DNA from: Patescibacteria group bacterium
GTDB taxonomy: Bacteria; Patescibacteriota; Minisyncoccia; Moranbacterales; UBA2206
Length of the DNA: 48,598 nt
Reading direction: 5' to 3'
NCBI GenBank assembly: GCA_038063775.1
Contig: JBBTUK010000008.1
Location: 1 to 48,598 of the forward strand
The notes beneath the pieces are model-generated. The model did no database searches. It saw only the letters and a program-made list of their open reading frames with translations, and was not told the DNA's origin. A program made the position numbers and the translations under genes. Below are positions 5,892 through 42,445 of the stretch, in pieces (the stretch's first letter is position 1; the number at the start of each line of letters is the position of its first letter).

Positions 5892-6098
5892 ATGTGTTTG
5901 GCATTTCCGGGAAAAATTATTTCTATTGTCGGACAACACGCCGATGTTGATTTTGACGGTGTCAAAAAAAAAGTAAACATTTCTCTTGTTCAAGCGAAAA
6001 AAGGCGATTATGTGATCGTGCACGCGGGTTTTGCCATTCAACTTCTTACGAAGGAAGACGCCTGGGAGGTGCTTAAGGAATTTGAAAAAAATTTATGA
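5892..6098 (+). CDS. hypC: [NiFe]-hydrogenase maturation chaperone HypC
   Basis: The hallmark N-terminus MCLAFPGKI requires a start at ATG 5892. 68 aa. ATGA overlap with hypD. Confidence 0.9.
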   Translation: MCLAFPGKIISIVGQHADVDFDGVKKKVNISLVQAKKGDYVIVHAGFAIQLLTKEDAWEVLKEFEKNL

Positions 6099-7138: not shown

Positions 7139-7185
7139 ATTGTTTTTTTGGCTACCACAGCCAATCTTGTGGCATAATTAACAAA

Positions 7186-8202: not shown

Positions 8203-9333
8203 GAGATAATAAACTATCTGCCCGAAAGAAACTCCGGCGTCCCCACGCGATATTTTTTTACTCGAGTAAACTCCTTTGCGTTCGAGATAGGAAGCAATTA
8301 TTTTATTATTGGCGATTCCGCCGGCAAAGAAACCAGCTTTTAGCTTAGAGCTTTTGGCTTCCAGCTTTAAAACTTTATATAAACCTTGGGCGATATAAAG
8401 CTGAGCGGTGGCGGCGAGGCGACGCTTGTCCCTGTTGATATTTTTAACTAGATATTCAAAAAGAGGAGTGGTCATTATCCCGTAACCCGTAACCCATAAC
8501 CCGTAACCCGTAATTCTTTTGATCTCTGGTTCTAGATCTTTGTAAGGTCTAGTGGAGTTTTTTTCGAGCAAGATCGCGGGGCTATGCTTATATTTCCTAA
8601 CATTACCTGAAAAGCCAAGCAGGACGGAAACCGCGTCCAAAATTCTTCCGGTGCTGGAAGTTTCCTGGCAGTTGAAATTTTGTTGAAGCTGATTATATAA
8701 TAGCTCGAATTGATTACGAGAGTAATATTTTTTAACAAGTCGATACAATTTATCTTTGGACATAAATTTGTCGAGGATGCTGATTAGCATGCGAGCCGGC
8801 TCGTTTACGGCCAAATCACCACCTATCAAAATTTGATTTTCCAAATGTCCGATTCTTTCAATACTTTTTACTTTTTCCTTCTTACTTTTTATTTTGAATA
8901 ATTCTCCACCCCAGATTTTTCTATCCAATCCGTAGCCGGTGCCGTCGCAGGCGATCCCGTAACCCGTAACCTGTAACCCGTAACCCGGTTCTTGGACAAT
9001 CTTATCTCCGATGGCAGAAAATACATGCGCTATATGATGTTGCACCTTTATATGGTTGGCTTTGTATTTTTTGCTCAAACTCTCTCCCAAAATAGTCGTC
9101 CTATAAAGAGGATGAAGATCGGTTAAAATTATGTTCGGCTTGGCTCGATTATTTTTCAAAAATTTTGCCACTGTCTGAATGAGTTTTTGAAAATTTTCTT
9201 CGCTTAATAAATCACCGAAAGATTCCGACCTATAAATCACTCCTTTGTAAAAAACTGAAAAATTACCGTCGGATTCCGGTCCCAAAGCCAGCAGGCAGTT
9301 ATGGGTATTTGCGGAGAAATTTATTGATTCCAT
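8182..9333 (-). CDS. hypF: HypF-like protein consisting only of the C-terminal Kae1-like domain
   Basis: Aligns by eye to E. coli HypF residues ~380-750: LALGPESDGNF, TDLHPLY, VQHHIAHV, ACDGTGYG...IWGGE, GGDLA, SSTGRILDAV, FAGGIANN, RGDAGVSFGQ. No acylphosphatase, Zn-finger or YrdC-like part. The 3' end overlaps hypE by 21 bp. Confidence 0.8.
   Translation of the reverse strand: MESINFSANTHNCLLALGPESDGNFSVFYKGVIYRSESFGDLLSEENFQKLIQTVAKFLKNNRAKPNIILTDLHPLYRTTILGESLSKKYKANHIKVQHHIAHVFSAIGDKIVQEPGYGLQVTGYGIACDGTGYGLDRKIWGGELFKIKSKKEKVKSIERIGHLENQILIGGDLAVNEPARMLISILDKFMSKDKLYRLVKKYYSRNQFELLYNQLQQNFNCQETSSTGRILDAVSVLLGFSGNVRKYKHSPAILLEKNSTRPYKDLEPEIKRITGYGLWVTGYGIMTTPLFEYLVKNINRDKRRLAATAQLYIAQGLYKVLKLEAKSSKLKAGFFAGGIANNKIIASYLERKGVYSSKKISRGDAGVSFGQIVYYLLADSGD
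8479..8513 (-). repeat. Heptanucleotide tandem array (GGGTTAC)n, five units, in frame inside the hypF-like gene
   Basis: Plus strand reads cccgtaa cccgtaa cccataa cccgtaa cccgtaa. It encodes ITGYGLWVTGYGI. Confidence 0.95.
8956..8986 (-). repeat. Second heptanucleotide array (GGGTTAC)n, about 4.5 units, in frame inside the hypF-like gene
   Basis: Plus strand reads cccgtaa cccgtaa cctgtaa cccgtaa cccg. It encodes PGYGLQVTGYGI. The 34-nt block matches 8477-8510 at 32/34 positions. Confidence 0.95.
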
Positions 9334-9373
9334 CAGATTTATTATAGCATTTACACGTCAAATATGTTAAAAT

Positions 9374-10156
9374 ATGCCTATGAAAGCCAAGAGGGATTTT
9401 ACCATAAAAACAAAGCCTCGGATTGCGATAGTTAGCCTGACATCCTGCGAGGGATGCCAATTTGCTTTGCTTGATTTGGGAAAACTTTTTTTTGATCTTA
9501 TTAATCAGGTGGAAATGGTAGATTTTCGTTTGCTGGAAGACGAGGATGATACGGGAGTCAAGCTCGATCTGGTTTTGGTTGAGGGAAACCCCATAACGGA
9601 AGAAAATGTCAGGTTTCTTAAAAGATTAAGAAAAAGGAGTAAAATTTTGGCGGCTCTGGGAAACTGTGCGGCCATGGGGGGAATTCCGGAAATAAAAAAT
9701 TACCAAAAAGGCGTTAATACCATTAAGCATGTTTATAAATACGTACAGGGCATAACCAATCCGAAAATAAGAGAAATTGATAATTTCGTGAAAGTTGACT
9801 TTGTTTTTCCGGGTTGTCCGATAACGGGTGAAGAATTTTTAAAATATTTTCCGGAACTTTTAGCTGGCCGTATTCCCCAAATTCCTGACCGACCAGTTTG
9901 TGTTGAGTGCCGAAAAAAGGGAAATCGCTGTTTGCTTCTAGATAAAAAACCATGTTTTGGTCCGATGATTTTGGGCGGCTGCGACGCGGTTTGTCCGACG
10001 GCCCGGATGATGTGCCAGGGCTGCCGAGGACTGCGACCGGCCGGAAACGTGAAAGCCATGCGCCAAACTCTCAAAACTATGATGACGGACGAGCAATTCG
10101 AAAATACGGCGGAAATTTATGGCCTCCGCGATGATATTGAAGCGCGGGGAAATTAG
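9374..10156 (+). CDS. Cytoplasmic (group 3-type) [NiFe]-hydrogenase small subunit
   Basis: No Tat signal. IAIVSLTSCEGCQ, LVEGN, GNCAAMGGIP and GCP motifs, plus a C-terminal CxxC/CxxxC ferredoxin-like cluster region. Confidence 0.85.
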   Translation: MPMKAKRDFTIKTKPRIAIVSLTSCEGCQFALLDLGKLFFDLINQVEMVDFRLLEDEDDTGVKLDLVLVEGNPITEENVRFLKRLRKRSKILAALGNCAAMGGIPEIKNYQKGVNTIKHVYKYVQGITNPKIREIDNFVKVDFVFPGCPITGEEFLKYFPELLAGRIPQIPDRPVCVECRKKGNRCLLLDKKPCFGPMILGGCDAVCPTARMMCQGCRGLRPAGNVKAMRQTLKTMMTDEQFENTAEIYGLRDDIEARGN

Positions 10157-10169
10157 TCAAGCCAAAAAA

Positions 10170-11102
10170 ATGGCCTTTTTAAAAAAATCATTATCGCTTA
10201 TTTTTGTCGTGATTGCAGTGGCCGCCGCCGGATTTGTGGTTTTTAAAAAGGGCCAGCCGGAATTGAGAAATTATATTCCAATTACCAAGCCCTGTTCATC
10301 GCCGCTTGCCTATGCCATTGGTAATGTTGATTCTCGATTTAACATAAGCAAGGACGGCGCGGCTGTGCTGGCTCAAAAGGCGGAGAATGTTTGGGAATCA
10401 CAGACGGGACTAGATTTGTTCCAATATGATCCGAACGCGCAACTGAAAATAAATTTTATATTTGACGCGCGGCAGCAGCAAGCGATTGAGGCCGTGGAAC
10501 TGGAACAAAAACTCGGAAAATTGAAAATTTCGGACAACAGCCTAAAAGTGCAATACAACAATCTGTATGCCGAGTATTCCAAAGAAATTGACAATTACAA
10601 CTCGTTGGCAAAAAAATACGAGAAGGAAATAAGTTCATATAACAAAGAAGTGAATCGCTGGAATAAAGTTGGGGGTGCGCCGCCGGATGAATATGAAAAG
10701 CTCAACAAAGAACAGGACGCTCTGGAAGCGATGCGAAAAAAACTGGAAAAAGAAAGAAAGAGCATCAACGATTTGATTAATCAGATGAATTCTCTGGCCA
10801 GCCGCGAAAAGCAGGTGATCAGCAGTTACAACGAATCATTGAACACTTTCCGGAACAAATACGGCGGAACGCGGGAATTTGAAAAAGGTATTTTCAATGG
10901 CCAAGAAGTTAACATTTACCAGTTTAATGAAGATTCAGATTTGGAATTAACAATCACTCACGAATTGGGCCATGCGCTCGGCATAGGGCATGTGGAAAAT
11001 ACCCAGTCAATCATGTATTATTTAATGGGAGAGCAGGACTTGGATCAGCCGACTCTTACAAGCGAGGATTTATCAGCGTTTAAAAGTGTTTGTCAATTAT
11101 GA
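10170..11102 (+). CDS. Membrane-anchored matrixin-like zinc metalloprotease with a long coiled-coil insert
   Basis: N-terminal TM helix (LSLIFVVIAVAAAGFVVF). HELGHALGIGH followed by SIMYY (Met-turn). About 150 aa of heptad-like K/E/N-rich sequence sits between the N-terminal and catalytic parts. Start taken at ATG 10170. Confidence 0.75.
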   Translation: MAFLKKSLSLIFVVIAVAAAGFVVFKKGQPELRNYIPITKPCSSPLAYAIGNVDSRFNISKDGAAVLAQKAENVWESQTGLDLFQYDPNAQLKINFIFDARQQQAIEAVELEQKLGKLKISDNSLKVQYNNLYAEYSKEIDNYNSLAKKYEKEISSYNKEVNRWNKVGGAPPDEYEKLNKEQDALEAMRKKLEKERKSINDLINQMNSLASREKQVISSYNESLNTFRNKYGGTREFEKGIFNGQEVNIYQFNEDSDLELTITHELGHALGIGHVENTQSIMYYLMGEQDLDQPTLTSEDLSAFKSVCQL

Positions 11103-11103
11103 A

Positions 11104-11206
11104 CCCCGTTAGAATTTTCAATTTATATATTGCGGGGCACTAAAAGTAATTAGTTTAATAATTTTCGCTGTTGACTTATAGCAATAGGTGTAAAATTATA
11201 ACGGGG
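11104..11206. mobile_element. MITE-like element (CCCCGTTAGAATTTT terminal inverted repeats) with TGAA duplication
   Basis: CCCCGTTAGAATTTTC (11104-11119) against the reverse complement of 11191-11206, CCCCGTTATAATTTTA: 14/16 (15/15 minus one mismatch over the first 15). TGAA at 11100-11103 and 11207-11210. Confidence 0.7.
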
Positions 11207-12465
11207 TGAACATAAAAATCAACCACATCGCGAAAATGGAAGGTCACGCGGGATTCATGGCCAGCGTTCTTCAGGGCGACGTGAAGTCGGCCAAGCTGGA
11301 AATCCAGGAAGGAATCCGTCTGATTGAAGGCGTGCTGATTGGCCGGGAATATAAAGATATGCCGATCGTGGCGCAACGGATTTGTGGAATTTGTCCGGTA
11401 GTACACAATTTAACCTCCATCAAAGCTTTGGAAAACGCTTTTGGGGTTGAGGTATCAAAAGAAACGAAAAAACTCAGGGAAGTTATGGAACTGGCGCAAA
11501 TTATCCATTCCCACGGATTGCATCTTTTCTTTTTATCGCTGGCCGATTTTTTGGATATGGAAAACGATTTGAATTTAATGCAAAAATATCCGGACGAGAC
11601 CAGAAAAGCCATTAGAATCCGGGAATATGGAATGGATATAGTTCGGGTTATCGGAGGCCGAGTAGTTCATCCACTGACCAATGAAGTGGGGGGATTCAAG
11701 AAAATTCCGGATAAAGAAGCGCTGAAAAAGATAGTTTCAGATTCCAAGGAAATATTGGGGCTAGCCATTGAATTGGGCGAGCTTTTTAAAAAAATAAAAA
11801 CTCCTGAATTTTACCGAAAAACCGAATATGTTTGTCTTGGAAAAAAAGGAGAATATGCCATTTATGATGGCGATATCGTTTCTTCCGAGGGCTTGCACAT
11901 ACCAGTGGCCAAGTTTGAAGCTAATTTTAACGAACTGCAAAAGCAGAAAGAAGTGATCAAAAAAGTCGAGCATGATGGAGAAAGTTATATGGTCGGCGCC
12001 ATTGCCAGAATCAATGTAAATCGGGAAAAACTTTCCTTGCAAGCAGAAAAATATTTGGAAAGTTTGAAGTGGAAATTTCCAGACTTCAATCCTTTCCATA
12101 ATATCTTGGCGCAAGTAACGGAAGTTATTCACGCCATTGAAAAATCAGCCGAACTTTTGCAGGAACTTATCAATTCTGATTTAAGGCAAGTTTTGACCAA
12201 GGAATATCAAATTAAAGAAGGTAGCGGAACGGCGGCCGTGGAAGCTCCGCGAGGGACTTTGTATTATCATGTGGAAGTGGATGGCAAAGGTTATATAAAG
12301 AATGTGAATATTATCACTCCCACCGCCCAATTCCTGGCGAATTTGGAAGATGATATAGCCAAATATATTCCGGAAATTCTGGATTTAGACGATAAAGAAA
12401 AAGAAAAAAAATTGCGAGCCTTTATCCGGGCTTATGATCCGTGCATCAGTTGCGCGGTGCATTAA
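11206..12465 (+). CDS. Cytoplasmic (group 3-type) [NiFe]-hydrogenase large subunit
   Basis: N-terminal RICGICPVVH and C-terminal DPCISCAVH Ni-binding motifs. The IAKMEGH N-terminus needs the GTG 11206 start, and an in-frame TAA lies at 11191. Confidence 0.9.
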   Translation: MNIKINHIAKMEGHAGFMASVLQGDVKSAKLEIQEGIRLIEGVLIGREYKDMPIVAQRICGICPVVHNLTSIKALENAFGVEVSKETKKLREVMELAQIIHSHGLHLFFLSLADFLDMENDLNLMQKYPDETRKAIRIREYGMDIVRVIGGRVVHPLTNEVGGFKKIPDKEALKKIVSDSKEILGLAIELGELFKKIKTPEFYRKTEYVCLGKKGEYAIYDGDIVSSEGLHIPVAKFEANFNELQKQKEVIKKVEHDGESYMVGAIARINVNREKLSLQAEKYLESLKWKFPDFNPFHNILAQVTEVIHAIEKSAELLQELINSDLRQVLTKEYQIKEGSGTAAVEAPRGTLYYHVEVDGKGYIKNVNIITPTAQFLANLEDDIAKYIPEILDLDDKEKEKKLRAFIRAYDPCISCAVH

Positions 12466-19124: not shown

Positions 19125-19201
19125 TGGTGGGCATATCTGGATTCGAACCAGAGACCTCGTCATTATCAGTGACGCGCTCTAACCAACTGAGCTATATGCC
19201 C
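19125..19201 (-). tRNA. tRNA-Ile (anticodon GAT), CCA encoded
   Basis: The reverse complement, GGGCATATAGCTCAGTTGGTTAGAGCGCGTCACTGATAATGACGAGGTCTCTGGTTCGAATCCAGATATGCCCACCA, folds into a perfect cloverleaf. Confidence 0.95.
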
Positions 19202-19212
19202 GTATGGACTTG

Positions 19213-19285
19213 TGGACCCTAGGGGATTCGAACTCCTGACCTCCTCGGTGCAAACGAGGCGCTCTACCAACTAAGCTAAGGGCCC
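19213..19285 (-). tRNA. tRNA-Ala (anticodon TGC), CCA not encoded
   Basis: The reverse complement, GGGCCCTTAGCTTAGTTGGTAGAGCGCCTCGTTTGCACCGAGGAGGTCAGGAGTTCGAATCCCCTAGGGTCCA, has the G3:U70 identity pair and one A-C mismatch in the T stem. Confidence 0.88.
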
Positions 19286-27144: not shown

Positions 27145-29544
27145 ATGAATAGCGCAAAGAAAAATAAAAACGAGCGGGTAAATCTTTCTATTTTCGGAAT
27201 GCACTGCGCATCCTGCGCTTCTCTTATTGAGCGCTCGCTCAAAAAAACACCGGGTGTAACCCAGGCCAATGTTAATTTTGCCGCGGAAAAAGCGTCGGTC
27301 GTTTTTGATGCGCGGGTGTCGAACATAAAAGCTTTAGTCAACGCAGTAACCGAAGCTGGATATCGGGCGGAAACAGTGGATGCAAAAGATATGGAATATG
27401 AAGCGAAAAAGCGGGAAAAAGAAATTTCCGATTATTTTAACAAATTCATATTCAGTTTCTTCTTAAGTCTGCCAATGCTGTATTTTATGCTTTTTGAATT
27501 TTTTAAAGGCATTCCAGGATCCATTCGTTGGGCTCCATATATTGGAGTTTTCTCGCTACTACTGACTATTCCGGTACAATTTATTATCGGCGCGGGATTT
27601 TATAGGGGCGGGTGGTCAGCGCTCAAAATGAAGACATTCAATATGGATAGCCTGATCGCTATCGGAACTTCTACCGCTTTTTTCTACAGTTTGATCAACC
27701 TCACTGCTTATGCAGTGAAAAATAATTCCCTCATCGGGCTTGGAGGAGAAAAAATTCCCGACTTGTATTTTGAAACGGCGGCCTTCCTCATAACTTTCGT
27801 AATTCTGGGAAAATGGCTGGAAATCAGAACCAAGGGAAAAACTTCCGATGCCATCAAAAAACTAATGGGACTCCAAGCCAAGACGGCGCGGGTGATACGC
27901 TTGGGAGCCACAGATGATATTCCCATTGATGAAGTGATCCACGGAGACATCGTCATTGTTCGTCCAGGAGAGAAAATTCCGGTGGACGGAAAAATCATCA
28001 AAGGCTCATCCGCGGTGGACGAATCCATGATCACTGGAGAAAGTTTGCCGGTGGAAAAACAGGTCGGGGACATGGTAGTCGGCGGAACGGTCAATAAAAC
28101 CGGTAGCTTTGAGTTTGAAGCGACGCGCGTCGGATCTGAAACTGCCTTGGCGCAAATCATAAGGCTGATTGAGGAAGCCCAAGGCTCCAAAGCGCCTATC
28201 CAGAATTTCGCCGATAAAATTTCCGCTTGGTTCGTGCCGGCCGTTATCGGCATCGCGGCTCTGACTTTTGTAATATGGTTCTTGGTGCTGGGCGAAAGCC
28301 TTACGTTTTCCCTTATGGCTTTTACGGCGGTCATCGTGATTGCTTGTCCTTGCGCTCTGGGATTGGCTACCCCCACTTCGCTTATGGTTGGAACCGGCAA
28401 GGGAGCTGAATACGGAATATTGATCAAGGGCGGGGAACCGCTGGAAGCGGCCTGTTACATAAACACGGTAATTTTTGATAAAACCGGAACTCTGACCCAC
28501 GGAAAGCCCAAGGTTACAGATGTGGTGGAATTCGGCGCGACAAACAAGGTTGAAATTTTGGCGATAGCCTCGAGCCTCGAAAAACTTTCTGAACATCCGC
28601 TGGCTGAAGCTATCTACACTTATGCCCAGGAGCAATCCGTAGTTTTCAAAGAGGTGCGTGATTTCAAGGCTGTACCCGGACATGGCGTGCAGGGGCGTCT
28701 TGGCGAGGTTGAATATTTTTTGGGAAACCGTAAACTAATCACCAATGTTTTAGGAATGTCCGTGGACAAAATTGATTCCGAAATAACCCGGCTGGAAGAG
28801 CAGGGGAAAACAGCTATGATTCTGGCAACAAAGACAGGTATTCTGGGCGCGGTAGCAGTGGCGGATACGGTCAAAGAGACTTCCCGCGAGGCGGTTGAAA
28901 AATTAAAGCGCCGGGGAATCGAAGTTTATATGATTACCGGTGATAACGCGCGAACCGCCAATGCGATTGCCAAGCAAGTCGGCATTGAGAATGTTTTGGC
29001 GGAAGTTTTGCCGGAAGACAAAGCCAATGAAGTAAAAAAGCTTCAGGATCTTGGTAAAAAAGTAGCGATGGTCGGGGACGGGATCAATGATGCTCCCGCT
29101 TTGGCGCAATCGGACTTGGGAATCGCCATGGGCTCCGGAACGGACGTAGCGATGGAAGCGGGGGATATCGTCATTATTAAGGATGATCTGCGGGACGTGG
29201 TGACGGCCTTTCAATTATCCAAAGAAACAATGGCGAAAATAAAGCAGAATATGTTTTTTGCCTTGTTTTATAACATTATCGGAATTCCCATTGCGGCGAG
29301 AATTTTCATGGGTCTTGGGCTGGTTCTCAAGCCGGAATTGGCGGGTTTGGCTATGGCTTTGAGCTCCATATCAGTGGTAAGCAATTCTTTGCTGCTGCGC
29401 CTATTCCGGCCTAATCGGAAAAACTATGTTTCCATGATCGCTCCGGCAGTAATGGTGATAATTTTTACTTTTATGTTTTTCGAATTTGCGCGCTTCAGTT
29501 CTGGAATGGAAAAAAATGAATCTAATCTTGTTTCCCCCCGGTAA
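27145..29544 (+). CDS. copA: Copper(I)-translocating P1B-type ATPase
   Basis: [44 protein letters not shown] and MALSS transmembrane signatures. Confidence 0.92.
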
Positions 29545-32107: not shown

Positions 32108-32161
32108 TATTTTCGCGACATGGCTGTATTAGTTGTATGCTAACACAATAAATTAACAAAT

Positions 32162-32431
32162 ATGATGTATAATTGGGGAAATATGATGGGCGGGGGCTAT
32201 GGATCTGGTTTTGGCTTGTTTGGGATGCTTTTCGGATGGTTTTTCACGATCTTGTTTGTGGGGTTGTTTATCTGGGGAATCATCACCCTTGTTAGGTGGA
32301 TGTCAGAACAAGGGTCAGGAAAGGATGCGAAGAAAGAGAACTCGGCGATTGCGATTCTCAAAGAACGCTACGCCAAAGGTGAGATTTCCAAGGAAGAGTT
32401 TGAAGAAAAGAAAAAAGACATTGTCTTATGA
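32162..32431 (+). CDS. Small membrane protein with C-terminal SHOCT domain
   Basis: Gly/Met-rich N-terminus, one TM helix, then ILKERYAKGEISKEEFEEKKKDI. Confidence 0.75.
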   Translation: MMYNWGNMMGGGYGSGFGLFGMLFGWFFTILFVGLFIWGIITLVRWMSEQGSGKDAKKENSAIAILKERYAKGEISKEEFEEKKKDIVL

Positions 32432-32471
32432 TTAGCAAAAGCAAATAAGCAGATTATTTTAATCAAAATTT

Positions 32472-32855
32472 ATGGAATTCGATTACACCACAGCCACAGC
32501 TAAGATCTTTGATTCGGCGGTCCAAGACGTGCAGGATGAAATCGCCAAAGCCGGCATGCGCGTTTTGTATGTTCACGATGTGCAGAAAACTTTAGGCGAG
32601 AAAGGATTTGAAAGAGAACCTTTTAAGATTATTGAATTTTGCAGCGCAAAATTTGCCAGTGATTTTTTGGATATTGACATCAAGATCGGACTTTGTCTGC
32701 CTTGCAAGATAAATGTGTATGCAAAAAGCGGGCAAACTTTCATTTCCGGCATGCGGCCGATCATCCTGCCGCATTTTTTCCCGCAAGCGGATTTGGGCGA
32801 GAAGCCGAAAGAAATTGACCAAATCATCCAAAACATTATTAATAACGCAAAATAA
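32472..32855 (+). CDS. DUF302-family protein
   Basis: ~127 aa. The pattern ...FKIIEFCSAKFA...GLCLPCKINVY...G.T.IS..RP matches my recollection of the DUF302 consensus. Confidence 0.6.
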   Translation: MEFDYTTATAKIFDSAVQDVQDEIAKAGMRVLYVHDVQKTLGEKGFEREPFKIIEFCSAKFASDFLDIDIKIGLCLPCKINVYAKSGQTFISGMRPIILPHFFPQADLGEKPKEIDQIIQNIINNAK

Positions 32856-32865
32856 CCTATAGCCT

Positions 32866-33603
32866 ATGAAAAAGTTACTTTTTATCACAACTATTTTTAT
32901 TTTAGGTCTTACTTTTCCGACTTTTTCTTTTGCTCAAGGAATGATGGGTTTTCCGAGCTTATCTCTCAATGACGCTGCTATACAAAGCCAGCAACAAGAG
33001 GAACAAGAAGGCAAGAAGCTTCTTGACGACTTAAGCAACAAAACAGCTGATTGTTCCCAACTCAAAGATACAGACTTTGAGAAAATTGGTGAATATTTTA
33101 TGGGTCAATCCATTGGAGATACCTCCAGGCACATCCTCATGAATGAAATGATGAAAAGAATGATGGGTGAGAAAGGCGAAGAGCAAATGCACGCAGTCAT
33201 GGGCAAGCGGTTGAGCGGTTGCGACACTTCAGCCGCGTTTCCATCGCAGGATGTTGGCTTTATGCCAATGATGAATATGTTTGCCCAATATGGAGCCCCA
33301 GGTTCTCGTACGGGGATGATGGGAGGATGGTCGTCTCCCCTTGGGTCTAATCAGACAAATAATTCTATGATGAATTTTGGACTTTCATCTCTTGGCGGAT
33401 TTGGCTGGATTTTCATGATTCTTTGGTGGATTTTGATCATCGTAGGGGTCATCATGCTTATCAAACGGCTCACAGCGCAATCTCACGGCTCAAATAACCT
33501 GCATGATAAAAAAAAGTCCCCGCTTGAAATTCTGAAAGAACGCTACGCCAAAGGCGAGATTGATAAAAAAGAATTCGAGGAGAGAAAGAAAGATTTAATT
33601 TAA
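32866..33603 (+). CDS. Secreted or membrane Met-rich protein with C-terminal SHOCT domain
   Basis: Signal peptide and multiple M-x-M / MMG runs (MNEMMKRMMGEKGEEQMHAVMG, FMPMMNMF, GMMGGW). A TM helix, then ILKERYAKGEIDKKEFEERKKDLI. Confidence 0.7.
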   Translation: MKKLLFITTIFILGLTFPTFSFAQGMMGFPSLSLNDAAIQSQQQEEQEGKKLLDDLSNKTADCSQLKDTDFEKIGEYFMGQSIGDTSRHILMNEMMKRMMGEKGEEQMHAVMGKRLSGCDTSAAFPSQDVGFMPMMNMFAQYGAPGSRTGMMGGWSSPLGSNQTNNSMMNFGLSSLGGFGWIFMILWWILIIVGVIMLIKRLTAQSHGSNNLHDKKKSPLEILKERYAKGEIDKKEFEERKKDLI

Positions 33604-33605
33604 AG

Positions 33606-34052
33606 GTGAAAATTTTTTCCATCATAATCAGGTCGTTTCTATATGGACTTTTGGCAGTTTTTCTGATGCTGCTGTTTTATTTTTCCTTGATTTCTCTGAT
33701 TTCCGGATGGGGATTTGCCCAGTCGCAATTCAGGGAATTTTGGTATTTCGTCATCGCTCTATCGGTTGGATTTGGAATTCAGATCGGACTTTATACTTAT
33801 CTCAAAAATTCAATCCATAAAGTTTCCGGAAAAGTCGTGGCGGTTTCGGGAGGAACTTCCACTTTCGCGATGGTTTCCTGCTGCGCGCACTATTTGGCCA
33901 ATGTGCTACCCGTTTTGGGAGTAACGGGCGTTTTGACGGTGATCGGCCAATATCAAACGCAACTTTTTTGGGTTGGGATAGTTTCTAATTTATTGGGGAT
34001 CACCTATGTAACATCTAAAGTAATTAAGTATAAAAAGTATGCCAAAAGTTAA
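33606..34052 (+). CDS. Four-helix membrane protein with an intramembrane vicinal Cys pair (AMVSCCAHYL)
   Basis: GTG start. Hydrophobic profile read by eye. No family recognised. Confidence 0.55.
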   Translation: MKIFSIIIRSFLYGLLAVFLMLLFYFSLISLISGWGFAQSQFREFWYFVIALSVGFGIQIGLYTYLKNSIHKVSGKVVAVSGGTSTFAMVSCCAHYLANVLPVLGVTGVLTVIGQYQTQLFWVGIVSNLLGITYVTSKVIKYKKYAKS

Positions 34053-34515
34053 AATTGCAATCATTGCCGTATTGGCGGCAATTGTTATTATTCAAGCTGC
34101 GAATTACATAAAAAATTATTCCAGGAAGACAAATTCAACCGGATCAAATAAATCAGTTCCACAATCCGAAAACCAAAACCCATCTTCTGGACTTGAAGCG
34201 CAAACCAACGGCGAAGGGCCGGTTTCCGTCCAAGTCACTCCTGCGGATCTGGCTCAAGACAAATGGAAATTTGAAATCGTTTTAAATACTCATTCCGTTG
34301 AACTGGATTACGACCTGACCCAACTCGTGGTCCTGGTTGATTCTTCCGGCAATCAATACAAACCGGCGGCTTGGGAAGGGGATCCTCCAGGCGGCCATCA
34401 TCGGGAAGGAGTCTTGATTTTTGAAGCGCCCAATCCTAAACCGTTATCTATAATTCTCCAAATAAATAATATCGGAAGCATTGAAAGAAGAGCTTTTTTT
34501 TGGAATATAAAATAA
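34039..34515 (+). CDS. Membrane-anchored extracytoplasmic protein with a GDPPGGHHREG motif
   Basis: N-terminal TM helix, low-complexity linker and a ~90-aa beta-rich domain. Overlaps the previous gene by 14 nt. Confidence 0.55.
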   Translation: MPKVKIAIIAVLAAIVIIQAANYIKNYSRKTNSTGSNKSVPQSENQNPSSGLEAQTNGEGPVSVQVTPADLAQDKWKFEIVLNTHSVELDYDLTQLVVLVDSSGNQYKPAAWEGDPPGGHHREGVLIFEAPNPKPLSIILQINNIGSIERRAFFWNIK

Positions 34516-34566
34516 AAAAGCTTATTTTTTAGCTTGTGGCCCAATCGAAAGAACTGAATTAAAAAA

Positions 34567-34595
34567 ATGACTTATTTTGCCAACCGGACTATAAT
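34567..34595 (+). promoter_or_regulatory. Sigma70-like promoter (ATGACT-N17-TATAAT) for the second ATPase
   Basis: ATGACT at 34567-34572 and TATAAT at 34590-34595. Confidence 0.45.
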
Positions 34596-34622
34596 AATAG
34601 CAAAAGCAATTTAAATAAAAAT

Positions 34623-36983
34623 ATGGATAAAAAAGAAAATAAATCCGGTTGCGACTGCGGAAAAGCCTGCCATTGCTGCGAGGCGGAAAAGCTGACCGTA
34701 ACTTCCGGAAGCGAAATGGAAGCTAAGCAATATGAATATAATTTGCAGGGAAAACTTTCTCATAATGCGCACATCTCGCATGAGATGGCGCCTTCTGCGA
34801 GTGAAATGATTTATACTTGCATAATGCATTCCGAGGTCAGGCAAAAACAGCCCGGGAAATGCCCCAAATGCGGTATGGAACTAGTATTGGCTTCCGCTGA
34901 AACTAATAAGGCGGGCGAGGCTGGAAAAAAAGGAGAAGAACACGCGCCCCATGATATGAAAAAGATGAGCCATATGGATCATGAGGCGGCGATGACCAAT
35001 CCAGTTATGGCCAAGGCAATGGAAGCGGACATGCGTCGCCGGTTTTGGATTTCCTTGATTTTATCCGTTCCAATTTTTCTTTATTCTCCGGTAGGAGTAA
35101 ATTTTTTTAAATTGAATTTGCCGGCGCCTATTCCCATAAACTGGATTCTTTTTATTCTTACCACGCCGATTGTTTTCTGGGCTGGTTCGATTTTTATAAC
35201 CGGTACTTACTATTCTCTCCGGAGCCGGAAACTTAATATGTCTGTTTTGATCACAACGGGCGTTTTGGCCGCTTATTTATTCAGCGTCTTTTTGACGCTC
35301 TCGGGCGGAGAAGAAACTTTTTACGAAGCTGCGGCTCTGCTTGTGACATTTGTGCTTTTTGGCCATTGGATGGAAATGAAATCAAGAAGGGGAACATCAG
35401 ACGCGCTCCGTGCTCTTTTTGATCTGGTTCCTCCGCAGGCTAAAGTCATCCGCGAGGGCAAAGAAATAACGCTTCCGAGCTCTGAAATAGTCAACGGCGA
35501 TATTGTAATTCTCCGGCCGGGCGATAAGGTTCCGGTAGACGGGGATATTACAGATGGAGAAACAAATGTGGATGAATCACTGATTACGGGAGAGTCCTTA
35601 CCTGTGACAAAGAAAGTCGGAGATAAAGTCATCGGAGGGTCGGTCAACCAGACTGGCGCTGTCAAATTCAAAGCCACGCAAGTGGGCTCTGAAACAGTTC
35701 TGGCTCAAATCATAAAACTTGTGGAAACCGCTCAGAATTCCAAGGCGCCCGGTCAGCGCATTGCGGATAAAGCCGCGGCCTGGCTGGTAGTGCTGGCTAT
35801 CGGATCGGGCATATTGACCTTTTTGGGCTGGTATTTTGTGGCCGGGTCTTTATTTATAACTGCTCTGACTTTTGCCGTTTCCACGATTGTCATAGCTTGT
35901 CCTGACGCGCTCGGGTTGGCGACCCCGACCGCTGTGGCCGTTGGAACGGGGATTGGAGCCAAAAATAACATTCTCATCAAAGACGCTATGACCTTGGAAG
36001 GGGCTTCTAAAATACATGCCATTGTTTTGGATAAAACTGGAACTCTAACCAAAGGCAAGCCGAAAGTAACAGATGTAATTGTTGCCAATGAATTTTCCAA
36101 GGAAGAAGTTTTGCGGTTGCAGGCTTCCGTAGAATCCGGTTCCAATCATCCAATCGCCAAATCCATAATTGAAGAAGCTACAAAGCTTAAATTAAGTCTG
36201 GCAACTTTAAAATCTTTTGAATCAATTGCGGGATATGGCCTTAAGGCTCAGGTGGAGGGAAAGAATGTTTTGGTCGGAACGGAAAAATTGCTCAAAGACA
36301 ACGGCGTTCCTATTGGCCAGGAAATTCAACAAATTTTGGAACGCTTGGGAAACGAAGGAAAAACAGTGAGCCTTCTTTCAATCGACAGAGCATATGCCGG
36401 CGTTGTGGCGGTGGCCGATACGATCAAGCCAAGCGCTAAAAAAACTATCGCAGCTCTTTCCGAGCTTGGCATTGAAGTGGCAATGATAACCGGCGACAAC
36501 AAAAGAGTGGCGGAGGCAGTAGGAAGGCAGCTGGGAATAGAGCGCATATTTTCCGAAGTCTTGCCCCGAGAAAAAGCTAACTATGTAAAAAAACTTCAAG
36601 ATGAGGGGAAATTCGTGGCCATGGTGGGCGACGGCATAAACGACGCGCCGGCTTTGGCGCAATCCGATATCGGAATTGCCATCGGAGCCGGGACCGATGT
36701 CGCCATTGAAACTGCCAACATTGTTTTAATGAAGTCTGATCCCTATGACATTGTCGCTGCCATAAGATTAAGCAAAGCCACGGTCAGAAAAATGAAGCAA
36801 AATCTTTTTTGGGCAGCTATTTACAATATTTTGGCCATTCCTGTGGCGGCCGGAGTATTTTATAAATCCTTCGGCCTGTCGCTTCGGCCGGAAATGTCTG
36901 CGCTTCTCATGTCTGCGTCATCAATCATTGTCGCGACCAACGCCGTTCTTCTGAAAGGAGTATCCTCGCAGTTAAAAAAATAA
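34623..36983 (+). CDS. CopB-like P1B-type heavy-metal ATPase with a CPD (not CPC/CPH) transmembrane motif
   Basis: N-terminal [35 protein letters not shown] zinc-ribbon-like metal-binding domain. His/Met-rich stretch, [16 protein letters not shown] (TGT CCT GAC at 35898-35906), [22 protein letters not shown]. Confidence 0.85.
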
Positions 36984-37006
36984 TGATAAAAAAAGGAGGT
37001 GAAAAG

Positions 37007-37384: not shown

Positions 37385-37714
37385 ATGGATTTTGAAGATT
37401 ACCAGAAGAAATCAAGAAAAACCGCCTTATATCCTGATGTTGGAAAAAATTATGTTTATCCAACTATTGGGCTGGCTGGGGAAACAGGGGAAGTTTCGGA
37501 AAAAATAAAAAAAGTTATCCGGGACAAAGGCGGCAAAATTGACGATGAAACCAGGAAAATGATAAAAAAAGAGCTTGGAGACGTCTTGTGGTATGTTTCG
37601 CAATTAGCCAGCGAGTTGGGCTTGTCATTGGACGAAATCGCGGAAAAAAACATAGAAAAACTTTATAGCCGCTTGGAGCGGGGCAAATTGCAGGGAAGCG
37701 GGGATAATCGGTAG
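37385..37714 (+). CDS. MazG-like nucleoside triphosphate pyrophosphohydrolase (single domain)
   Basis: GLAGETGEV...K..IRD and ELGDVLWYV motifs of the all-alpha NTP-PPase family. Confidence 0.8.
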   Translation: MDFEDYQKKSRKTALYPDVGKNYVYPTIGLAGETGEVSEKIKKVIRDKGGKIDDETRKMIKKELGDVLWYVSQLASELGLSLDEIAEKNIEKLYSRLERGKLQGSGDNR

Positions 37715-37727
37715 AAAAAATATCAAT

Positions 37728-37808
37728 ATGTCTAAATATATTCCAGTTATCGGAATGGAGATTCACCCCGTAAAATCCCGAGGCGGGATCACGGGGCAAG
37801 CGTCTTAA
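37728..37808 (+). pseudogene. Ghost gatB 5' fragment: 13 GatB-like codons (MSKYIPVIGMEIH) running into a hairpin. 26-codon upstream ORF.
   Basis: 10 of 13 residues match the real GatB N-terminus (MSKYKPTIGLEIH). The stop TAA (37806-37808) lies 3 nt before the real ATG. Confidence 0.7.
37766..37796 (+). repeat. 31-nt palindromic element CCCCGTAAAATCCCG-AGG-CGGGATCACGGGG
   Basis: CCCCGT/ACGGGG and ATCCCG/CGGGAT stems. Followed by CAAG + 11 nt + ATG, the same layout as at miaB. Confidence 0.85.
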
Positions 37809-37811
37809 ATT

Positions 37812-39281
37812 ATGAGTAAATATAAACCAACAATTGGCTTAGAGATTCATGTTGAGCTGAAGACCGAATCTAAGATGTTTTGTGACAGCAAAAACGGTTT
37901 AGGGCTGGAAAAGGAACCCAATGTGAACATTTGTCCGGTTTGCACGGGACAACCCGGAACTCTGCCGGTGCCGAATCAAAAAGCGATTGAATTCGTGCAA
38001 AAAGCCGGCTTGGCTTTAAATTGCCAATTGCGGGAAGTTTCCAAATTCGACCGAAAAAACTATTTTTACCCCGATCTCCCGAAAGGTTATCAGATTTCCC
38101 AATATGACCAGCCGCTCTGCGAAAAAGGAAAAATAGAAATTGGTGGAAAAGAAATCGGTATAACCCGGATTCATTTGGAAGAAGATACTGGAAAACTTAT
38201 TCACCCCAAAGGTGGAAAGTATTCACTTTTTGATTATAACCGAGCTGGTGTGCCGCTTATGGAACTTGTGACCGAGCCGGAGATTGAAAGCGGGAAAGAG
38301 GCTCGGATTTTTTGCCAGAAACTTCAGCAAATTTTCCGGTATCTCGAAATTTCCGAAGCGGATATGGAAAAAGGCCACATGCGCTGCGAAGTGAACATTT
38401 CGCTTTACAAAAATAGTGAAGATAAATTGAGCGGAACGAAAGTGGAAATTAAAAACCTAAATTCTTTCCGGGTGGTTGAAAAATCAATCGATTTCGAGAT
38501 TGAGCGCCAAAAAGCGGCCCTAGAGAGCGGAGAAAAAATTATTCAGGAAACGAGGGGCTGGGGTGAAAATAAGGGAGAAACCGTAACTCAGCGAGAAAAA
38601 GAATCAGCTCATGAATATCGATACTTTCCTGAACCGGATATTCCCACTTTGCGATTTACTCAAGAATACATAGAAAATTTAAGAAAAAAATTGCCGGAAC
38701 TTCCTGATGCCAAAGAAAAAAGATTCATCGAAGAATACAATTTATCCCCGGAAAATGTGGGTGTTATAGTAGGCGACAAAAATTTGGCTGATTATTTCGA
38801 GCATGTCGTCTCAGAAATAAGGGAAAAGATGGACTGTGGAGAACTTGATGTGGAAGAAAAAAAGTGCGTAAAATTAGCTGCCAATTATATGGTGAGCGAA
38901 TTACAGAAGCACTTGATCGAGAATAAAGAAACTATAGAGAACGTTAAGATAACACCGGAAAATTATGCAGAGCTGGTCGGATTTGTGGCGAACGGAAAAA
39001 TTAGCTCCAGCGGAGTTCAGGTTGTCTTGGAAGAAATGTATAAGAAAGGCGGAGATCCCTCCCAGATTATTGAAGAAAAAAATTTGCTTCAATTAAACGA
39101 TGAAAAGCATTTGGAAGAGATTGTTGATAAAGTTTTGAAAGAACACCAGCAATCTGCAGCGGATTATAAAAGTGGAAAAGAAAATGCTCTGCAATTTTTA
39201 GTGGGTCAAGTTATGAAAGAATCAAAAGGGAAGGCTAACCCGCAAATCGTGCAAGAATTACTAGGAAAGAAGCTGAAATAG
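37812..39281 (+). CDS. gatB: Aspartyl/glutamyl-tRNA amidotransferase subunit B
   Basis: IGLEIHVELKT and CPVCTGQPGTLP motifs, with a YqeY-like C-terminal tail. Confidence 0.95.
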   Translation: MSKYKPTIGLEIHVELKTESKMFCDSKNGLGLEKEPNVNICPVCTGQPGTLPVPNQKAIEFVQKAGLALNCQLREVSKFDRKNYFYPDLPKGYQISQYDQPLCEKGKIEIGGKEIGITRIHLEEDTGKLIHPKGGKYSLFDYNRAGVPLMELVTEPEIESGKEARIFCQKLQQIFRYLEISEADMEKGHMRCEVNISLYKNSEDKLSGTKVEIKNLNSFRVVEKSIDFEIERQKAALESGEKIIQETRGWGENKGETVTQREKESAHEYRYFPEPDIPTLRFTQEYIENLRKKLPELPDAKEKRFIEEYNLSPENVGVIVGDKNLADYFEHVVSEIREKMDCGELDVEEKKCVKLAANYMVSELQKHLIENKETIENVKITPENYAELVGFVANGKISSSGVQVVLEEMYKKGGDPSQIIEEKNLLQLNDEKHLEEIVDKVLKEHQQSAADYKSGKENALQFLVGQVMKESKGKANPQIVQELLGKKLK

Positions 39282-39837: not shown

Positions 39838-39868
39838 GTCCCGGCGAGAGGAGCACCTCCGCCGGGAC
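39838..39868. terminator. Strong hairpin between the convergent small ORF and miaA. Terminator for miaA (T-rich on the minus side).
   Basis: GTCCCGGCG-A-GAGG-AGCA-CCTC-CGCCGGGAC. On the minus strand it is followed by TTTTGTTT. Confidence 0.7.
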
Positions 39869-40922: not shown

Positions 40923-42317
40923 TTAAGTATTGCCTAATTTACCTTCGAGATTCCATATATTGGCTTTGGTTATTTTAACTTTCACAAATTGTCCCACCAA
41001 ACCTTTTTTATTTGAAATAATCTTAACATTTTTCATTGTGCGTGTTTTTCCGAAGTAGAAATCGCCCTTTTTGCTATCAATTAGCACTTCCAGTGTTTTT
41101 CCAATATATTTTTTGTTGTTGGTAAAAACGGTTTTCTTCAGAATTTCGTTAAGATATTTTTCTCGCCTGGCTTTTTCCTTTTTGGATACGTTATCCTTCA
41201 TCTTCCAAGCAACCGTGCCCGGGCGGGGAGAGTATTGTCCGAAATATACCATATCATACATTGCTCTTTTCATCATTTCGGCCGAGGCAAGAAAATTCCT
41301 TTTTGTTTCACCAGGAAAGCCGACAATTATATCCGAAGTTATGGAAAATAATTTTTGTGGCTTATATCTTTTGAAAGCTACTTTTATTTTTTTGATCAAA
41401 GTCAGATATTGATGGCTGGTATATCGGCGGTTCATTTTCCGTATAATTGCATCATTGCCTGACTGAATTGGTAAATGAAAACACTCGCAAATCTTGGGAA
41501 GCTTGGCAACTGTTTCAATCATTTCATCCGTGACGTCTTTGGGGTGGTTGCTGATAAAACTGATCCAAAAATGCCCGGGGATGGCATTGATCGTCCTAAG
41601 TAGTTTTGAAAAAGTAATGACTTTATCCTCCTTCGCTGATGCTTCGGCGGATGAATTCTTATCGATAAATCGATAAGAATTCACATTCTGTCCCAGCAAA
41701 ACAATTTCTTTGTACCTATTTTTAACTAAATTTTTAACTTCTTTTATTATTTCCTCCGCTGGCCGTGAAACTTCGCGTCCTCTGGCATACGGCACTACAC
41801 AATAAGAGCAAAAATTATTACAGCCGGTCATGATCGGAATGTAGGCCTGGAATTTATTGGCATGCTTAGGTTTAATGGATAGATAGGCAATGCTTTCTTT
41901 GTTTGGAGTATTATTACTTTGTGTAATTTTCAATTTTAAATTTTCAATTTTCAATGAATTTTTAATGATAAAATTTTCAAATGTTTTAAAATCGTTTATG
42001 GTAAAAAACAAATTCACCTTATTTTTCAAACGCCTTTGCACATCTTTCCTGTTTGCCAAGCATCCTGTGAGAACAATTTTCACTTTTTTGCTGCTTTTTC
42101 TCAAATTATGGATTTGTCCATAAGCCCGGTCTTCAGCCATCTGCCGCACGCCGCAAGTGTTGAAAACAACCAAATCCGCCTTCGCTAAAGCTTCGGCGGA
42201 CAAGTCCGCTCCTGGTAAAGGCGAAAAACCACAACTTTCTAGACAAGCGGCAATTCGCTCCGAGTCCGAATGGTTCATCTGACAACCAAGAGTCTTGATA
42301 TAATATTTTTTAGTCAT
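40923..42317 (-). CDS. miaB: tRNA-2-methylthio-N6-dimethylallyladenosine synthase (radical SAM methylthiotransferase)
   Basis: IKTLGCQMNHSDSE UPF0004 N-domain, the CNNFCSYCVVP radical-SAM cluster and a C-terminal TRAM domain. Confidence 0.93.
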   Translation of the reverse strand: MTKKYYIKTLGCQMNHSDSERIAACLESCGFSPLPGADLSAEALAKADLVVFNTCGVRQMAEDRAYGQIHNLRKSSKKVKIVLTGCLANRKDVQRRLKNKVNLFFTINDFKTFENFIIKNSLKIENLKLKITQSNNTPNKESIAYLSIKPKHANKFQAYIPIMTGCNNFCSYCVVPYARGREVSRPAEEIIKEVKNLVKNRYKEIVLLGQNVNSYRFIDKNSSAEASAKEDKVITFSKLLRTINAIPGHFWISFISNHPKDVTDEMIETVAKLPKICECFHLPIQSGNDAIIRKMNRRYTSHQYLTLIKKIKVAFKRYKPQKLFSITSDIIVGFPGETKRNFLASAEMMKRAMYDMVYFGQYSPRPGTVAWKMKDNVSKKEKARREKYLNEILKKTVFTNNKKYIGKTLEVLIDSKKGDFYFGKTRTMKNVKIISNKKGLVGQFVKVKITKANIWNLEGKLGNT

Positions 42318-42323
42318 AGTGAT

Positions 42324-42398
42324 TCATTCTTGCCCCGTACCAAGCCCTGCTTTGGTACTGGGGTGACAACCGAAAGTTTTAATAAGATATTTTTTCAT
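42324..42398 (-). pseudogene. Ghost miaB 5' fragment: MKKYLIKTFGC then hairpin-encoded residues. 24-codon upstream ORF.
   Basis: Compare the real MiaB MTKKYYIKTLGCQMN. The frame leaves MiaB homology exactly at TGT CA|C CCC. The stop TGA lies 6 nt before the real ATG. Confidence 0.7.
42333..42363 (-). repeat. 31-nt palindromic element (minus strand CCCCAGTACCAAAGC-AGG-GCTTGGTACGGGG)
   Basis: Same length, same central AGG, same CCCC/GGGG ends and the same 3' ACGGGGCAAG as the gatB element. Confidence 0.85.
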
Positions 42399-42445
42399 AA
42401 CAAAAGTATTTATCAGGATAACTTAAAATAGGAAAATTATCAAGT

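Follow-up and report, generated by a model that had tools for sequence, protein, structure and literature searches.

Why should an essential gene begin twice? This question is raised by gatB, the gene for subunit B of the Asp/Glu-tRNA amidotransferase, on contig JBBTUK010000008.1 (assembly GCA_038063775.1) of an uncultured, Moranbacteria-related groundwater bacterium, which is known as a metagenome-assembled genome (MAG) of the Patescibacteria with GCA_964357535.1 as one of its assemblies. The whole stretch of 48,598 nucleotides (48.6 kb) that was analyzed is referred to as the window. In front of gatB, a segment resembling the first codons of the gene itself, including a start codon and termed the ghost, is followed by a G+C-rich hairpin, a short spacer and the real gene, and the same arrangement recurs at miaB, the gene for a tRNA methylthiotransferase. 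The answer given here is that this arrangement is a real, unusual and lineage-restricted cassette, which relocates the starts of two essential genes and is maintained and exchanged by recombination. As regards its nature, an even chance is given to the reading as a small, non-autonomous 5'-end replacement cassette, existing as an insertion polymorphism within a narrow Moranbacteria-related lineage of the Patescibacteria.

At gatB, the ghost (MSKYIPVIGMEIH) and the real N-terminus (MSKYKPTIGLEIH) agree in 10 of 13 residues and in exactly 27 of 39 nucleotides, with the junction between ghost and hairpin reading ...ATTCA|CCCC (37765/37766). The hairpin has a minimum free energy of -19 kcal/mol as RNA (37-mer; z = -3.9), and the inserted block, which reaches from the hairpin to the end of the second N-terminal copy, amounts to 84 nt. 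The cassette at miaB lies on the minus strand and shows the identical layout, with the ghost ATG at 42398, the junction ...TGTCA|CCCC, a hairpin of -17.9 kcal/mol (z = -3.5) and an inserted block of 81 nt. The original prediction, which was made from the sequence of the window, had described the succession of ghost, hairpin, CAAG, 11 nt and real ATG at gatB, a match of 10 of 13 residues and about 27 of 39 nucleotides, a ghost frame crossing the hairpin and ending 3 nt before the real start, and a recurrence of the cassette at miaB; every one of these sequence statements was reproduced.

Comparison of the alleles reveals a common plan. A block of 81-85 nt stands after codon 12-13 of the ancestral gene, always following ...TCA, and is composed of a G+C-rich hairpin of 30-31 nt, an AU-rich spacer of 8-12 nt, and a new ATG with a diverged N-terminal copy of ~38 nt. 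The ends of the hairpin are conserved (CA|CCCC ... GGGG|CAAG), and its stem is variable and gene-specific: those of gatB and miaB are unrelated in sequence and share length, register and the AGG loop. CAAG and spacer of the window's gatB are identical in the related locus L004 and are replaced by CAGG and 12 nt in L207, while the miaB spacer measures 9 nt in L006 and 8 nt in L212. Both window cassettes match CACCCC-N11-AGG-N7-AC-GGGGCAAG in the same register, over 37 nt each, and the looser pattern CACCCC-N(10-40)-GGGGCAAG has two matches in the window versus 0.02 expected. A scan independent of any motif, which looked for a repeat of the encoded N-terminus in the 200 nt before each open reading frame (ORF) start, detected only gatB and miaB in the 48.6 kb; the check proposed with the original prediction, whether such hairpins are preceded by an N-terminal fragment, is answered positively for both window cassettes. 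Recovery of the cassette in independent NCBI, ENA, JGI and Logan assemblies excludes an artefact of assembly. Further copies were not found in ~810 kb of related DNA, even with up to 7 mismatches, all loci having been sampled around gatB and miaB, i.e., two genes in about six lineages.

A collection of genomes was additionally scanned with the pattern CACCCC-N11-AGG-N9-GGGGCAAG, for which the chance estimate ignored base composition. At least 118 matches were returned, and those listed are located in unrelated, mostly high-GC genomes lacking the AU-rich context; they are uninformative about Patescibacteria. Among the matches listed, the gammaproteobacterial MAG OY761822.1 (L014, L026, L037, L052, L072, L073) contains at least six identical copies of the 37-mer CACCCCAGGAGCCGGACAGGCCGACCGAGGGGGCAAG, which form an unrelated dispersed or tandem family.

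The order of events can be read from relatives without the insert. Hairpin-free alleles, for which the original prediction had advised a search, exist at gatB in L005, L006 (GatB 85-87% identical) and L206 (91%), and at miaB in L206. The gatB ATG of these empty alleles lies 12-13 nt past the MazG stop, which is the position of the ghost ATG in the window, and their reading frame runs MSKYTPVIGMEIH|VELK..., i.e., with a ghost-type N-terminus joined directly to the remainder of the protein. The tight spacing of MazG gene and gatB is likewise found in the outgroups L141 and L158. At the second locus, miaB of L206 begins MKKYFIKTFGCQMN behind the promoter-like region that precedes the miaB ghost in the window. 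Moreover, the blastn alignment of the window and L206 breaks exactly at both junctions (37765; 42364), and positions 10000-10038 of L206 align to both the ghost and the real gatB N-terminus. The empty-site relatives together with these breaks identify the blocks of 84 nt at gatB and 81 nt at miaB as insertions. This comparison of sequences shows the ghost to be the ancestral start, and the block an insertion that brought along a new ATG and a second N-terminal segment.

The fate of both starts after the insertion points in the same direction. The ghost ATG is lost in gatB of L207 and L208, an internal ATG remaining in L207, and non-conservative changes have made the ghost degenerate in L006 and in L212; every carrier, by contrast, has kept an intact real ATG and N-terminus. 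Decay of the ghost and integrity of the real start throughout argue for the cassette-borne ATG as the functional start, from which GatB and MiaB would be synthesized.

In this clade, publicly called gatB and miaB genes often begin internally, at the junction (MELKT..., VELKT..., MNHSDSE...), as in P0007, P0009-P0012, P0124, P0137, P0138, P0141, P0143 and others, and the true ATG is situated further upstream in every such locus read (L004, L005, L006, L007, L213). The idea that short calls mark hidden insertions was rejected for all loci read: L005, L006 and L213 have no insert, and in the two known carriers, L004 and L007, the true start precedes the called one, the short calls being gene-caller artefacts. 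The internal starts look like a systematic start-calling error in a genome without Shine-Dalgarno (SD) motifs.

The distribution of the cassette does not follow the phylogeny of its host genes. At gatB, it is present in three lineages, namely the window (WIN), L004/L007/L210/L211 and L207/L208, and absent from L005, L006, L206, L209, L212, L213, L214 and 80 more distant loci. At miaB, it occurs in WIN, in L006, which is empty at gatB, and in the basal L212, whose MiaB is only 66% identical; it is absent from L206, L210, L209 and L213. The tree of the gatB body shows carriers and non-carriers interleaved inside a clade with 100% bootstrap support, within which WIN, L004 and L207 carry the gatB cassette and L005, L006 and L206 are without it. 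L206, the sister of the window with 100% bootstrap, is empty at both genes. A search for GatB homologues in metagenomes yielded only relatives of at most 69% identity, none with the cassette, which served as outgroups and negative controls.

Identity along the gatB locus discloses how the cassette reached its present positions. While the gene bodies of WIN, L004 and L207 are ~79% identical, the WIN hairpin is identical to that of L207 at 31/31 and to that of L004 at 30/31 positions, and the real N-terminus agrees with L207 at 36/38. In sliding windows, the identity of WIN and L207 amounts to 93, 93 and 87% over the first 90 nt of real gatB and to ~75% thereafter, whereas that of WIN and its sister L206 is 73-80% over the same 90 nt and ~90% thereafter. 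On the left side of the hairpin, ghost and 3' end of the MazG gene are 85-92% identical to L206 versus 72-76% to L207. Thus, an L207-like tract in WIN starts abruptly at the foot of the hairpin and fades ~50 nt past the duplicated segment. The abrupt left and graded right edges indicate recombination with a homologous right arm and a very short left arm, a pattern that does not fit a transposon with two fixed ends. With a left arm restricted to the conserved last codons of the ghost, the own N-terminus of each recipient becomes a ghost. Taken together, these alleles show a cassette that evidently is passed among related lineages, and lost from some of them, by recombination. Many more distant Patescibacteria natively possess the cassette-type N-terminus, YKPTIGLEIH, which is compatible with a foreign origin. 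The original prediction had argued for a diverged or foreign allele rather than a recent tandem duplication, and this stands: the ghost is the ancestral copy, and the real N-terminus with the following ~50 nt is L207-like and not L206-like.

Three further ideas were discarded. A mobile unit of 4.6 kb (gatB-orf-miaA-miaB) bounded by the two inverted cassettes is contradicted by the enclosed genes, which are no more divergent from L206 than the flanks, and by the separate occurrence of the two cassettes in other lineages. The N-terminus MSKYIP|TIGLEIH of P0013, considered as a chimera produced by deletion, has a different upstream context without cassette and represents natural variation. QMN-H-SDSE as opposed to QMN-V-SDSE was withdrawn as a mark of a foreign tract in miaB, as the empty allele L213 also contains H. 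Besides, the cassette-free relative L214 features an IS1595-family DDE transposase gene (41-715) ~3 kb upstream of gatB, which is the sole transposase seen in the related loci.

The structure of the hairpin is preserved. The loops comprise 3-4 nt, AGG in five alleles and CAAG in L212. In miaB of L006, the pair at the foot of the hairpin has changed from C-G to A-T, and in L212 the stem is rebuilt with two fully compensatory pairs (A-U to G-C, G-C to A-U), so that 88.9% of the cells are paired in the three-sequence miaB alignment versus 19-42% in slid registers. These changes show a hairpin whose structure selection evidently maintains and which is the module that defines the family. The coordinates of both cassettes and of the adjacent features are compiled in Table 1.

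Table 1. Features of the gatB and miaB cassettes and their surroundings in the window (position 1 is the first nucleotide of the 48,598)
Feature	Coordinates	Strand	Evidence or remark
gatB ghost, ancestral start and first 38 nt (MSKYIPVIGMEIH), ending ...ATTCA	37728..37765	+	position and upstream context as in empty alleles
gatB ghost ORF, 26 codons and TAA (37806-37808), through the hairpin	37728..37808	+	stop 3 nt before real ATG
gatB hairpin, 31 nt, CCCCGT-AAA-ATCCCG-AGG-CGGGAT-C-ACGGGG	37766..37796	+	fold
CAAG (37797-37800) and 11-nt AU-rich spacer holding the ghost-frame stop	37797..37811	+	
Putative functional gatB start, second copy of first 38 nt (MSKYKPTIGLEIH)	37812..37849	+	intact in all carriers
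L207-like foreign tract past the duplicated segment, approximate	37850..37900	+	sliding-window identities
MazG-family gene	37385..37714	+	Pfam MazG; TAG 37712-37714, 13 nt before gatB ghost ATG
gatB (Asp/Glu-tRNA amidotransferase subunit B), 489 aa	37812..39281	+	PF02934, PF02637
miaB (tRNA methylthiotransferase), 464 aa, from cassette-borne ATG	40923..42317	-	
Second copy of miaB N-terminal 38 nt	42280..42317	-	real ATG 42317
miaB CAAG (42332-42329) and 11-nt spacer (AATGAATCACT)	42318..42332	-	
miaB hairpin, 31 nt, CCCC-A-GTACCAA-A-GC-AGG-GC-TTGGTAC-GGGG	42333..42363	-	fold; compensatory changes in L006, L212
miaB ghost ORF, 24 codons and TGA	42324..42398	-	stop 6 nt before real ATG
miaB ghost, ancestral start and first 35 nt (MKKYLIKTFGC), ending ...TGTCA	42364..42398	-	matches intact start of L206 (MKKYFIKTFGCQMN)
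Promoter-like site TTGATA-17-TATCCT upstream of miaB ghost	42415..42443	-	consensus match only; conserved in empty allele L206

According to the favored reading as a 5'-end replacement cassette, the old start persists as a short dead-end ORF, which is the ghost seen in the carriers, and the enzyme would be made from the cassette-borne ATG, for which, as for nearly all starts of this genome, an unstructured AU-rich leader without SD motif would suffice. Ribosomes loading at the old ATG would cross the hairpin and terminate beside the new ATG, which probably makes the insertion harmless and is not demonstrably selected. For the transfer, the tract pattern suggests that the right arm is provided by ordinary homology within the gene and the left arm by the last few conserved nucleotides of the ghost only, the N-terminus of the recipient turning into the new ghost. 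The hairpin might serve in cis as a fixed boundary on the left of the block that is transferred; instead of this, or besides it, the hairpin RNA might sequester the G+C-rich insert and thereby keep the region of the new start single-stranded.

Several points weigh against this reading. The shared architecture at two genes implies a common generating mechanism, and nothing tested accounts for the initial duplication at both of them; passive recombination does not explain the site after ...TCA at codon 12-13 and the identical hairpin ends at both genes. The use of the cassette-borne ATG, the translation of the ghost and the role of the hairpin RNA are deduced from sequence patterns. The covariation in miaB is weak, with three sequences and 60 of 500 shuffles reaching the observed score, and the near-identity of the gatB hairpins between lineages could mean recent spread instead of constraint. 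Finally, the evidence comes from two genes in about six lineages, all loci having been taken from around gatB and miaB.

A rival explanation is a true mobile element of the homing type. A nuclease or hairpin-binding recombinase, encoded elsewhere or lost, would cut the empty site near ...TCA| in gatB and miaB, and repair would copy the cassette in and destroy the recognition site, with the own ATG and N-terminal copy of the cassette keeping the gene working. Such an element would be a splicing-free counterpart of introns and inteins, resembling the MobA/gene-60 cassette of phage T4 once its endonuclease has been lost. Lineages that are not sisters have the cassette at the same site, its architecture and context (after TCA, at codon 12-13) do not differ between two unrelated genes, and the sharing of flanks resembles co-conversion beside an insert. 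In addition, both inserts lie in highly conserved codons of essential genes, a typical kind of homing target, and MobA also carries a diverged copy of its target region and often persists after endonuclease loss. Nevertheless, neither an endonuclease nor a recombinase gene was detected in or beside the examined cassette loci, and a Pfam scan of the 40 window ORFs, which are housekeeping genes, revealed no transposase, integrase, HUH nuclease, reverse transcriptase or homing endonuclease. Copies of the cassette were not found on viral contigs, phages or plasmids either, the left edge of the transferred tract is abrupt and not graded, and the pattern of gains could equally result from ancestral presence and repeated loss. 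On balance, a homing-type element is rather unlikely. The same caution applies to the broader proposal of a new class of minimal selfish insertion, in which a hairpin module of ~46 nt invades the first dozen codons of essential genes, supplies a new start and replacement N-terminal codons, and spreads by homing or transformation-driven recombination; this is tentative and somewhat improbable.

The one-sided tract in gatB, abrupt at the foot of the hairpin and graded at its homologous right end, is also what a passive scar of homology-facilitated illegitimate recombination (HFIR) would leave behind. In this process, one end of the incoming DNA is integrated through homology, the second being attached illegitimately or via microhomology, and it is an established outcome of natural transformation (PMC3240628). 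A foreign gatB or miaB fragment starting at a leader hairpin would have entered by transformation, with homology in the gene as its anchor and an illegitimate join at a depth of 35-38 nt in the resident gene, which would have duplicated the N-terminus; the hairpin would be the leader of the donor. The native occurrence of YKPTIGLEIH in more distant Patescibacteria is in line with such a donor. Still, a donor-type allele with the hairpin before an intact gene and without ghost was not found among >90 gatB loci, two independent joins would be required after the same trinucleotide, at the same depth and beside hairpins of identical length and ends, and the hairpin has been kept by compensatory change long after the insertion. 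An HFIR scar is therefore considered unlikely.

The reading put forward with the original prediction was that of a regulatory leader, in which the translated ghost acts as an upstream ORF that couples or attenuates the synthesis of GatB and MiaB, and the hairpin as a pause or operator. A variant regards the hairpin as a tRNA-mimic operator that is bound by GatB and MiaB as tRNA-binding enzymes. Both genes indeed encode tRNA-handling enzymes, each has a conserved hairpin sequence of its own, and the ghost frame is open through the hairpin in 6/6 alleles, with its stop between positions -9 and +5 relative to the real ATG; these alleles cover each of the three phase relationships and include an ATGA overlap in L212. 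However, in a simulation with random AU-rich spacers of 8-12 nt, a stop in this interval is expected for 67% of cases per allele, with a joint probability of 0.13; this geometry is expected by chance because of the AU-rich spacer and the Lys-rich N-terminus. The claim of a coupled upstream ORF is thus not upheld by the geometry, and the loss of the ghost ATG in L207/L208 speaks against it as well. The original prediction was right that the real gatB start lacks an SD motif; as an argument for coupling this fails, since 36/38 gene starts sampled in the window are likewise without one and an SD-like motif (GGAG/GAGG/AGGA/AAGG) precedes only 2/38, i.e., the absence is genome-wide. Moreover, the closest relatives manage without the cassette, a regulatory leader leaves the N-terminal duplication unexplained, and a match in Rfam was lacking. 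The tRNA-mimic operator was rejected, as the hairpins with their loops of 3-4 nt resemble neither an anticodon arm nor a T-arm. An in-frame read-through isoform was likewise dismissed, since ghost and real gene are in frame only in WIN and L004 and not in L207, L006 and L212. Overall, a regulatory leader is very unlikely. Coupling between ghost and real start is physically possible, selection for it is unsupported, and within the favored reading as a replacement cassette it is plausible that termination and reinitiation at the real ATG help to render the insertion harmless.

That the gene start was simply duplicated in tandem on the spot and drifted afterwards, with a hairpin arising by chance, is hardly credible. 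Perfect tandem duplications of start regions do exist in the phylum (L185); here, however, it is not the ghost but the functional copy that deviates from the consensus of the clade, the real N-terminus and the tract downstream of it are nearer to a different lineage than to the sister L206, the 46 nt separating the copies showed on inspection no convincing similarity to the 46 nt upstream of the ghost, of which they might have been a copy, and the same hairpin skeleton is found at two genes. The example just mentioned, in the distant patescibacterial locus Ga0207997_1003326 (L185, minus strand, ~989-1075), is a perfect duplication of ~34 nt with start codon, in which ACAATTATGAGCAAACAACCTAACAATATAGAAA occurs twice, 7 nt apart, and which thus represents a hairpin-free ghost N-terminus by simple duplication.

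The surroundings of the cassettes in the window comprise A/T-rich gene leaders and many genes only 5-15 nt apart. An antisense ORF of 94 codons (37515-37799, minus strand), which begins at the TTG of CTTG, the complement of CAAG, and spans the ghost and the MazG gene, is most likely spurious. Between a convergent 74-aa ORF and miaA, a strong hairpin of -25.5 kcal/mol (GTCCCGGCGAGAGGAGCACCTCCGCCGGGAC, 39838-39868) is probably a bidirectional terminator. Directly upstream of the MazG-gatB pair, the region 32115-36990 has no counterpart in the sister contig L206 by blastn. It contains SHOCT-domain genes, DUF302, two unannotated ORFs and a heavy-metal P-type ATPase (34623-36983), which is the second one besides that at 27145-29544, and it resembles a lineage-specific insertion of a metal-resistance module. 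Further away, tRNA-Ile(GAT) and tRNA-Ala(TGC) stand side by side on the minus strand (19125-19285), which is the usual pair of the bacterial 16S-23S spacer; rRNA was not detected in the window. A hydrogenase maturation and structural cluster (6095-12465) includes HypD, a HypE-like AIRS protein and small and large subunits of the NiFe-hydrogenase type, and the HypF-like ORF therein (8182-9333, minus strand) matches the C-terminal Kae1-like domains only.

The findings are of relevance in several respects. For annotation, they imply that gene callers assign wrong starts to gatB and miaB in this clade and that ghosts could be mistaken for small proteins or regulatory leader peptides. Organisms without SD motifs, moreover, tolerate a start codon moved behind a hairpin of -18 kcal/mol. 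In the most conservative reading, the cassette documents a natural allelic replacement of a 5' end that left a datable remnant of the old start. If it is an element in its own right, it would bear on the persistence of selfish DNA in the tiny, streamlined genomes of Patescibacteria and on recombination or transformation between lineages with ~20% divergence.

As to known systems, the original prediction had stated that no described element shows this layout, and the searches agree, with neither an Rfam family nor phage or plasmid similarity nor a literature match found. Apart from two tRNAs, the window contains no match at the gathering level of Rfam 15 (searched at E <= 10), the best remaining matches scoring 4-19 bits against gathering thresholds of 35-180, with E >= 1. 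The skeleton and both hairpin cores were not found in viral contigs, and phages and plasmids gave no blastn similarity to the cassette. A RAYT-associated REP/BIME or MITE repeat is contradicted by two copies in 48.6 kb, both in 5' coding regions, and no other in ~810 kb. Integron attC sites likewise combine a variable stem sequence with conserved structure and ends; the ends of the cassettes (CACCCC/GGGGCAAG on one strand, CTTGCCCC/GGGGTG on the opposite one) do not fit RYYYAAC/GTTRRRY on inspection, and integrase and array are absent. A diversity-generating retroelement was excluded because the differences between ghost and real copy include G/C, T/C and T/A in both directions and no reverse transcriptase is encoded among the window ORFs, and a TIGR array (TIGR-Tas) because the hairpins are single, without array, tas-like gene in the window or box C/D motifs seen.

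The single-strand transposition systems share isolated traits with the cassette. Insertion after a fixed TCA is compatible with the IS200/IS605 family, but a derived palindrome-associated element of the PATE type requires subterminal hairpins at both ends, whereas each insert has one, and TnpA or TnpB were not found among the 40 window ORFs or the called genes of related loci. Elements of the IS91/ISCR/Helitron group use an HUH Y2 transposase, possess a hairpin near one end and insert beside a tetranucleotide of the GAAC or CAAG type. The hairpin is followed by CAAG in 5/6 alleles and by CAGG in L207; the empty sites, however, place the insertion point at the CA|CCCC side of the hairpin and not at CAAG, and an HUH gene was absent from the DNA examined (window ORFs, Pfam).

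Small palindromic elements that invade coding regions are known from the GC clusters and 'byp' elements of yeast mitochondria, and the Rickettsia palindromic elements (RPEs) number 728 in R. felis, 85 of them in ORFs, where they are translated in frame. Like RPEs and GC clusters, the cassette is a short, relatively G+C-rich hairpin insert within an ORF of an A+T-rich genome; unlike RPEs, it occupies only two sites in the DNA examined, remains outside the protein and brings an N-terminal duplication and a new start. In e14 and phage 21, which integrate into icd of E. coli, and in islands integrating into tRNA genes, attP carries a replacement end of the target gene. Such elements are kilobases long, encode an integrase and usually replace the 3' end. 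The cassette resembles them in that the insert brings a diverged copy of a gene end and the displaced original is left as a partial pseudo-copy, and differs by a non-gene part of ~46 nt, the lack of an integrase and the replacement of a 5' end with its start codon. With HFIR it shares the abrupt left and graded right edges of the tract; HFIR, however, is a process, which predicts neither a conserved hairpin with fixed ends at two genes nor its long-term structural maintenance.

The closest documented system is the MobA/gene-60 cassette of phage T4, which consists of a homing endonuclease and a 50-nt bypass insert in a topoisomerase gene. Both are short hairpin-bearing inserts at a fixed site in a highly conserved coding region of an essential gene, both include a diverged, insert-derived copy of the target region ('homR' in MobA), and both are tolerated via a translational trick and show a patchy distribution with recent insertions; the T4 cassette is often retained after loss of the endonuclease. 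In contrast to T4, no endonuclease or mob gene was detected at any carrier locus examined, the host is a cell and not a phage, and two genes are affected. A bypass of the gene-60 type does not apply, since matched take-off and landing codons are absent (CAC/CAT would match in gatB, whereas CAC for His faces CAG for Gln in miaB) and L207 has lost its ghost start, whereas no allele lacks the internal ATG. No compared system joins a hairpin module of ~46 nt with a new start codon and an N-terminal copy. Insertions within essential genes are known to survive by being spliced out or hopped over; where ribosomal bypassing serves this purpose in gene 60, a fresh start codon and a duplicated N-terminus take its place here, and, should the cassette prove to be an independent element, restarting on a carried copy of the gene's beginning would be a third way.

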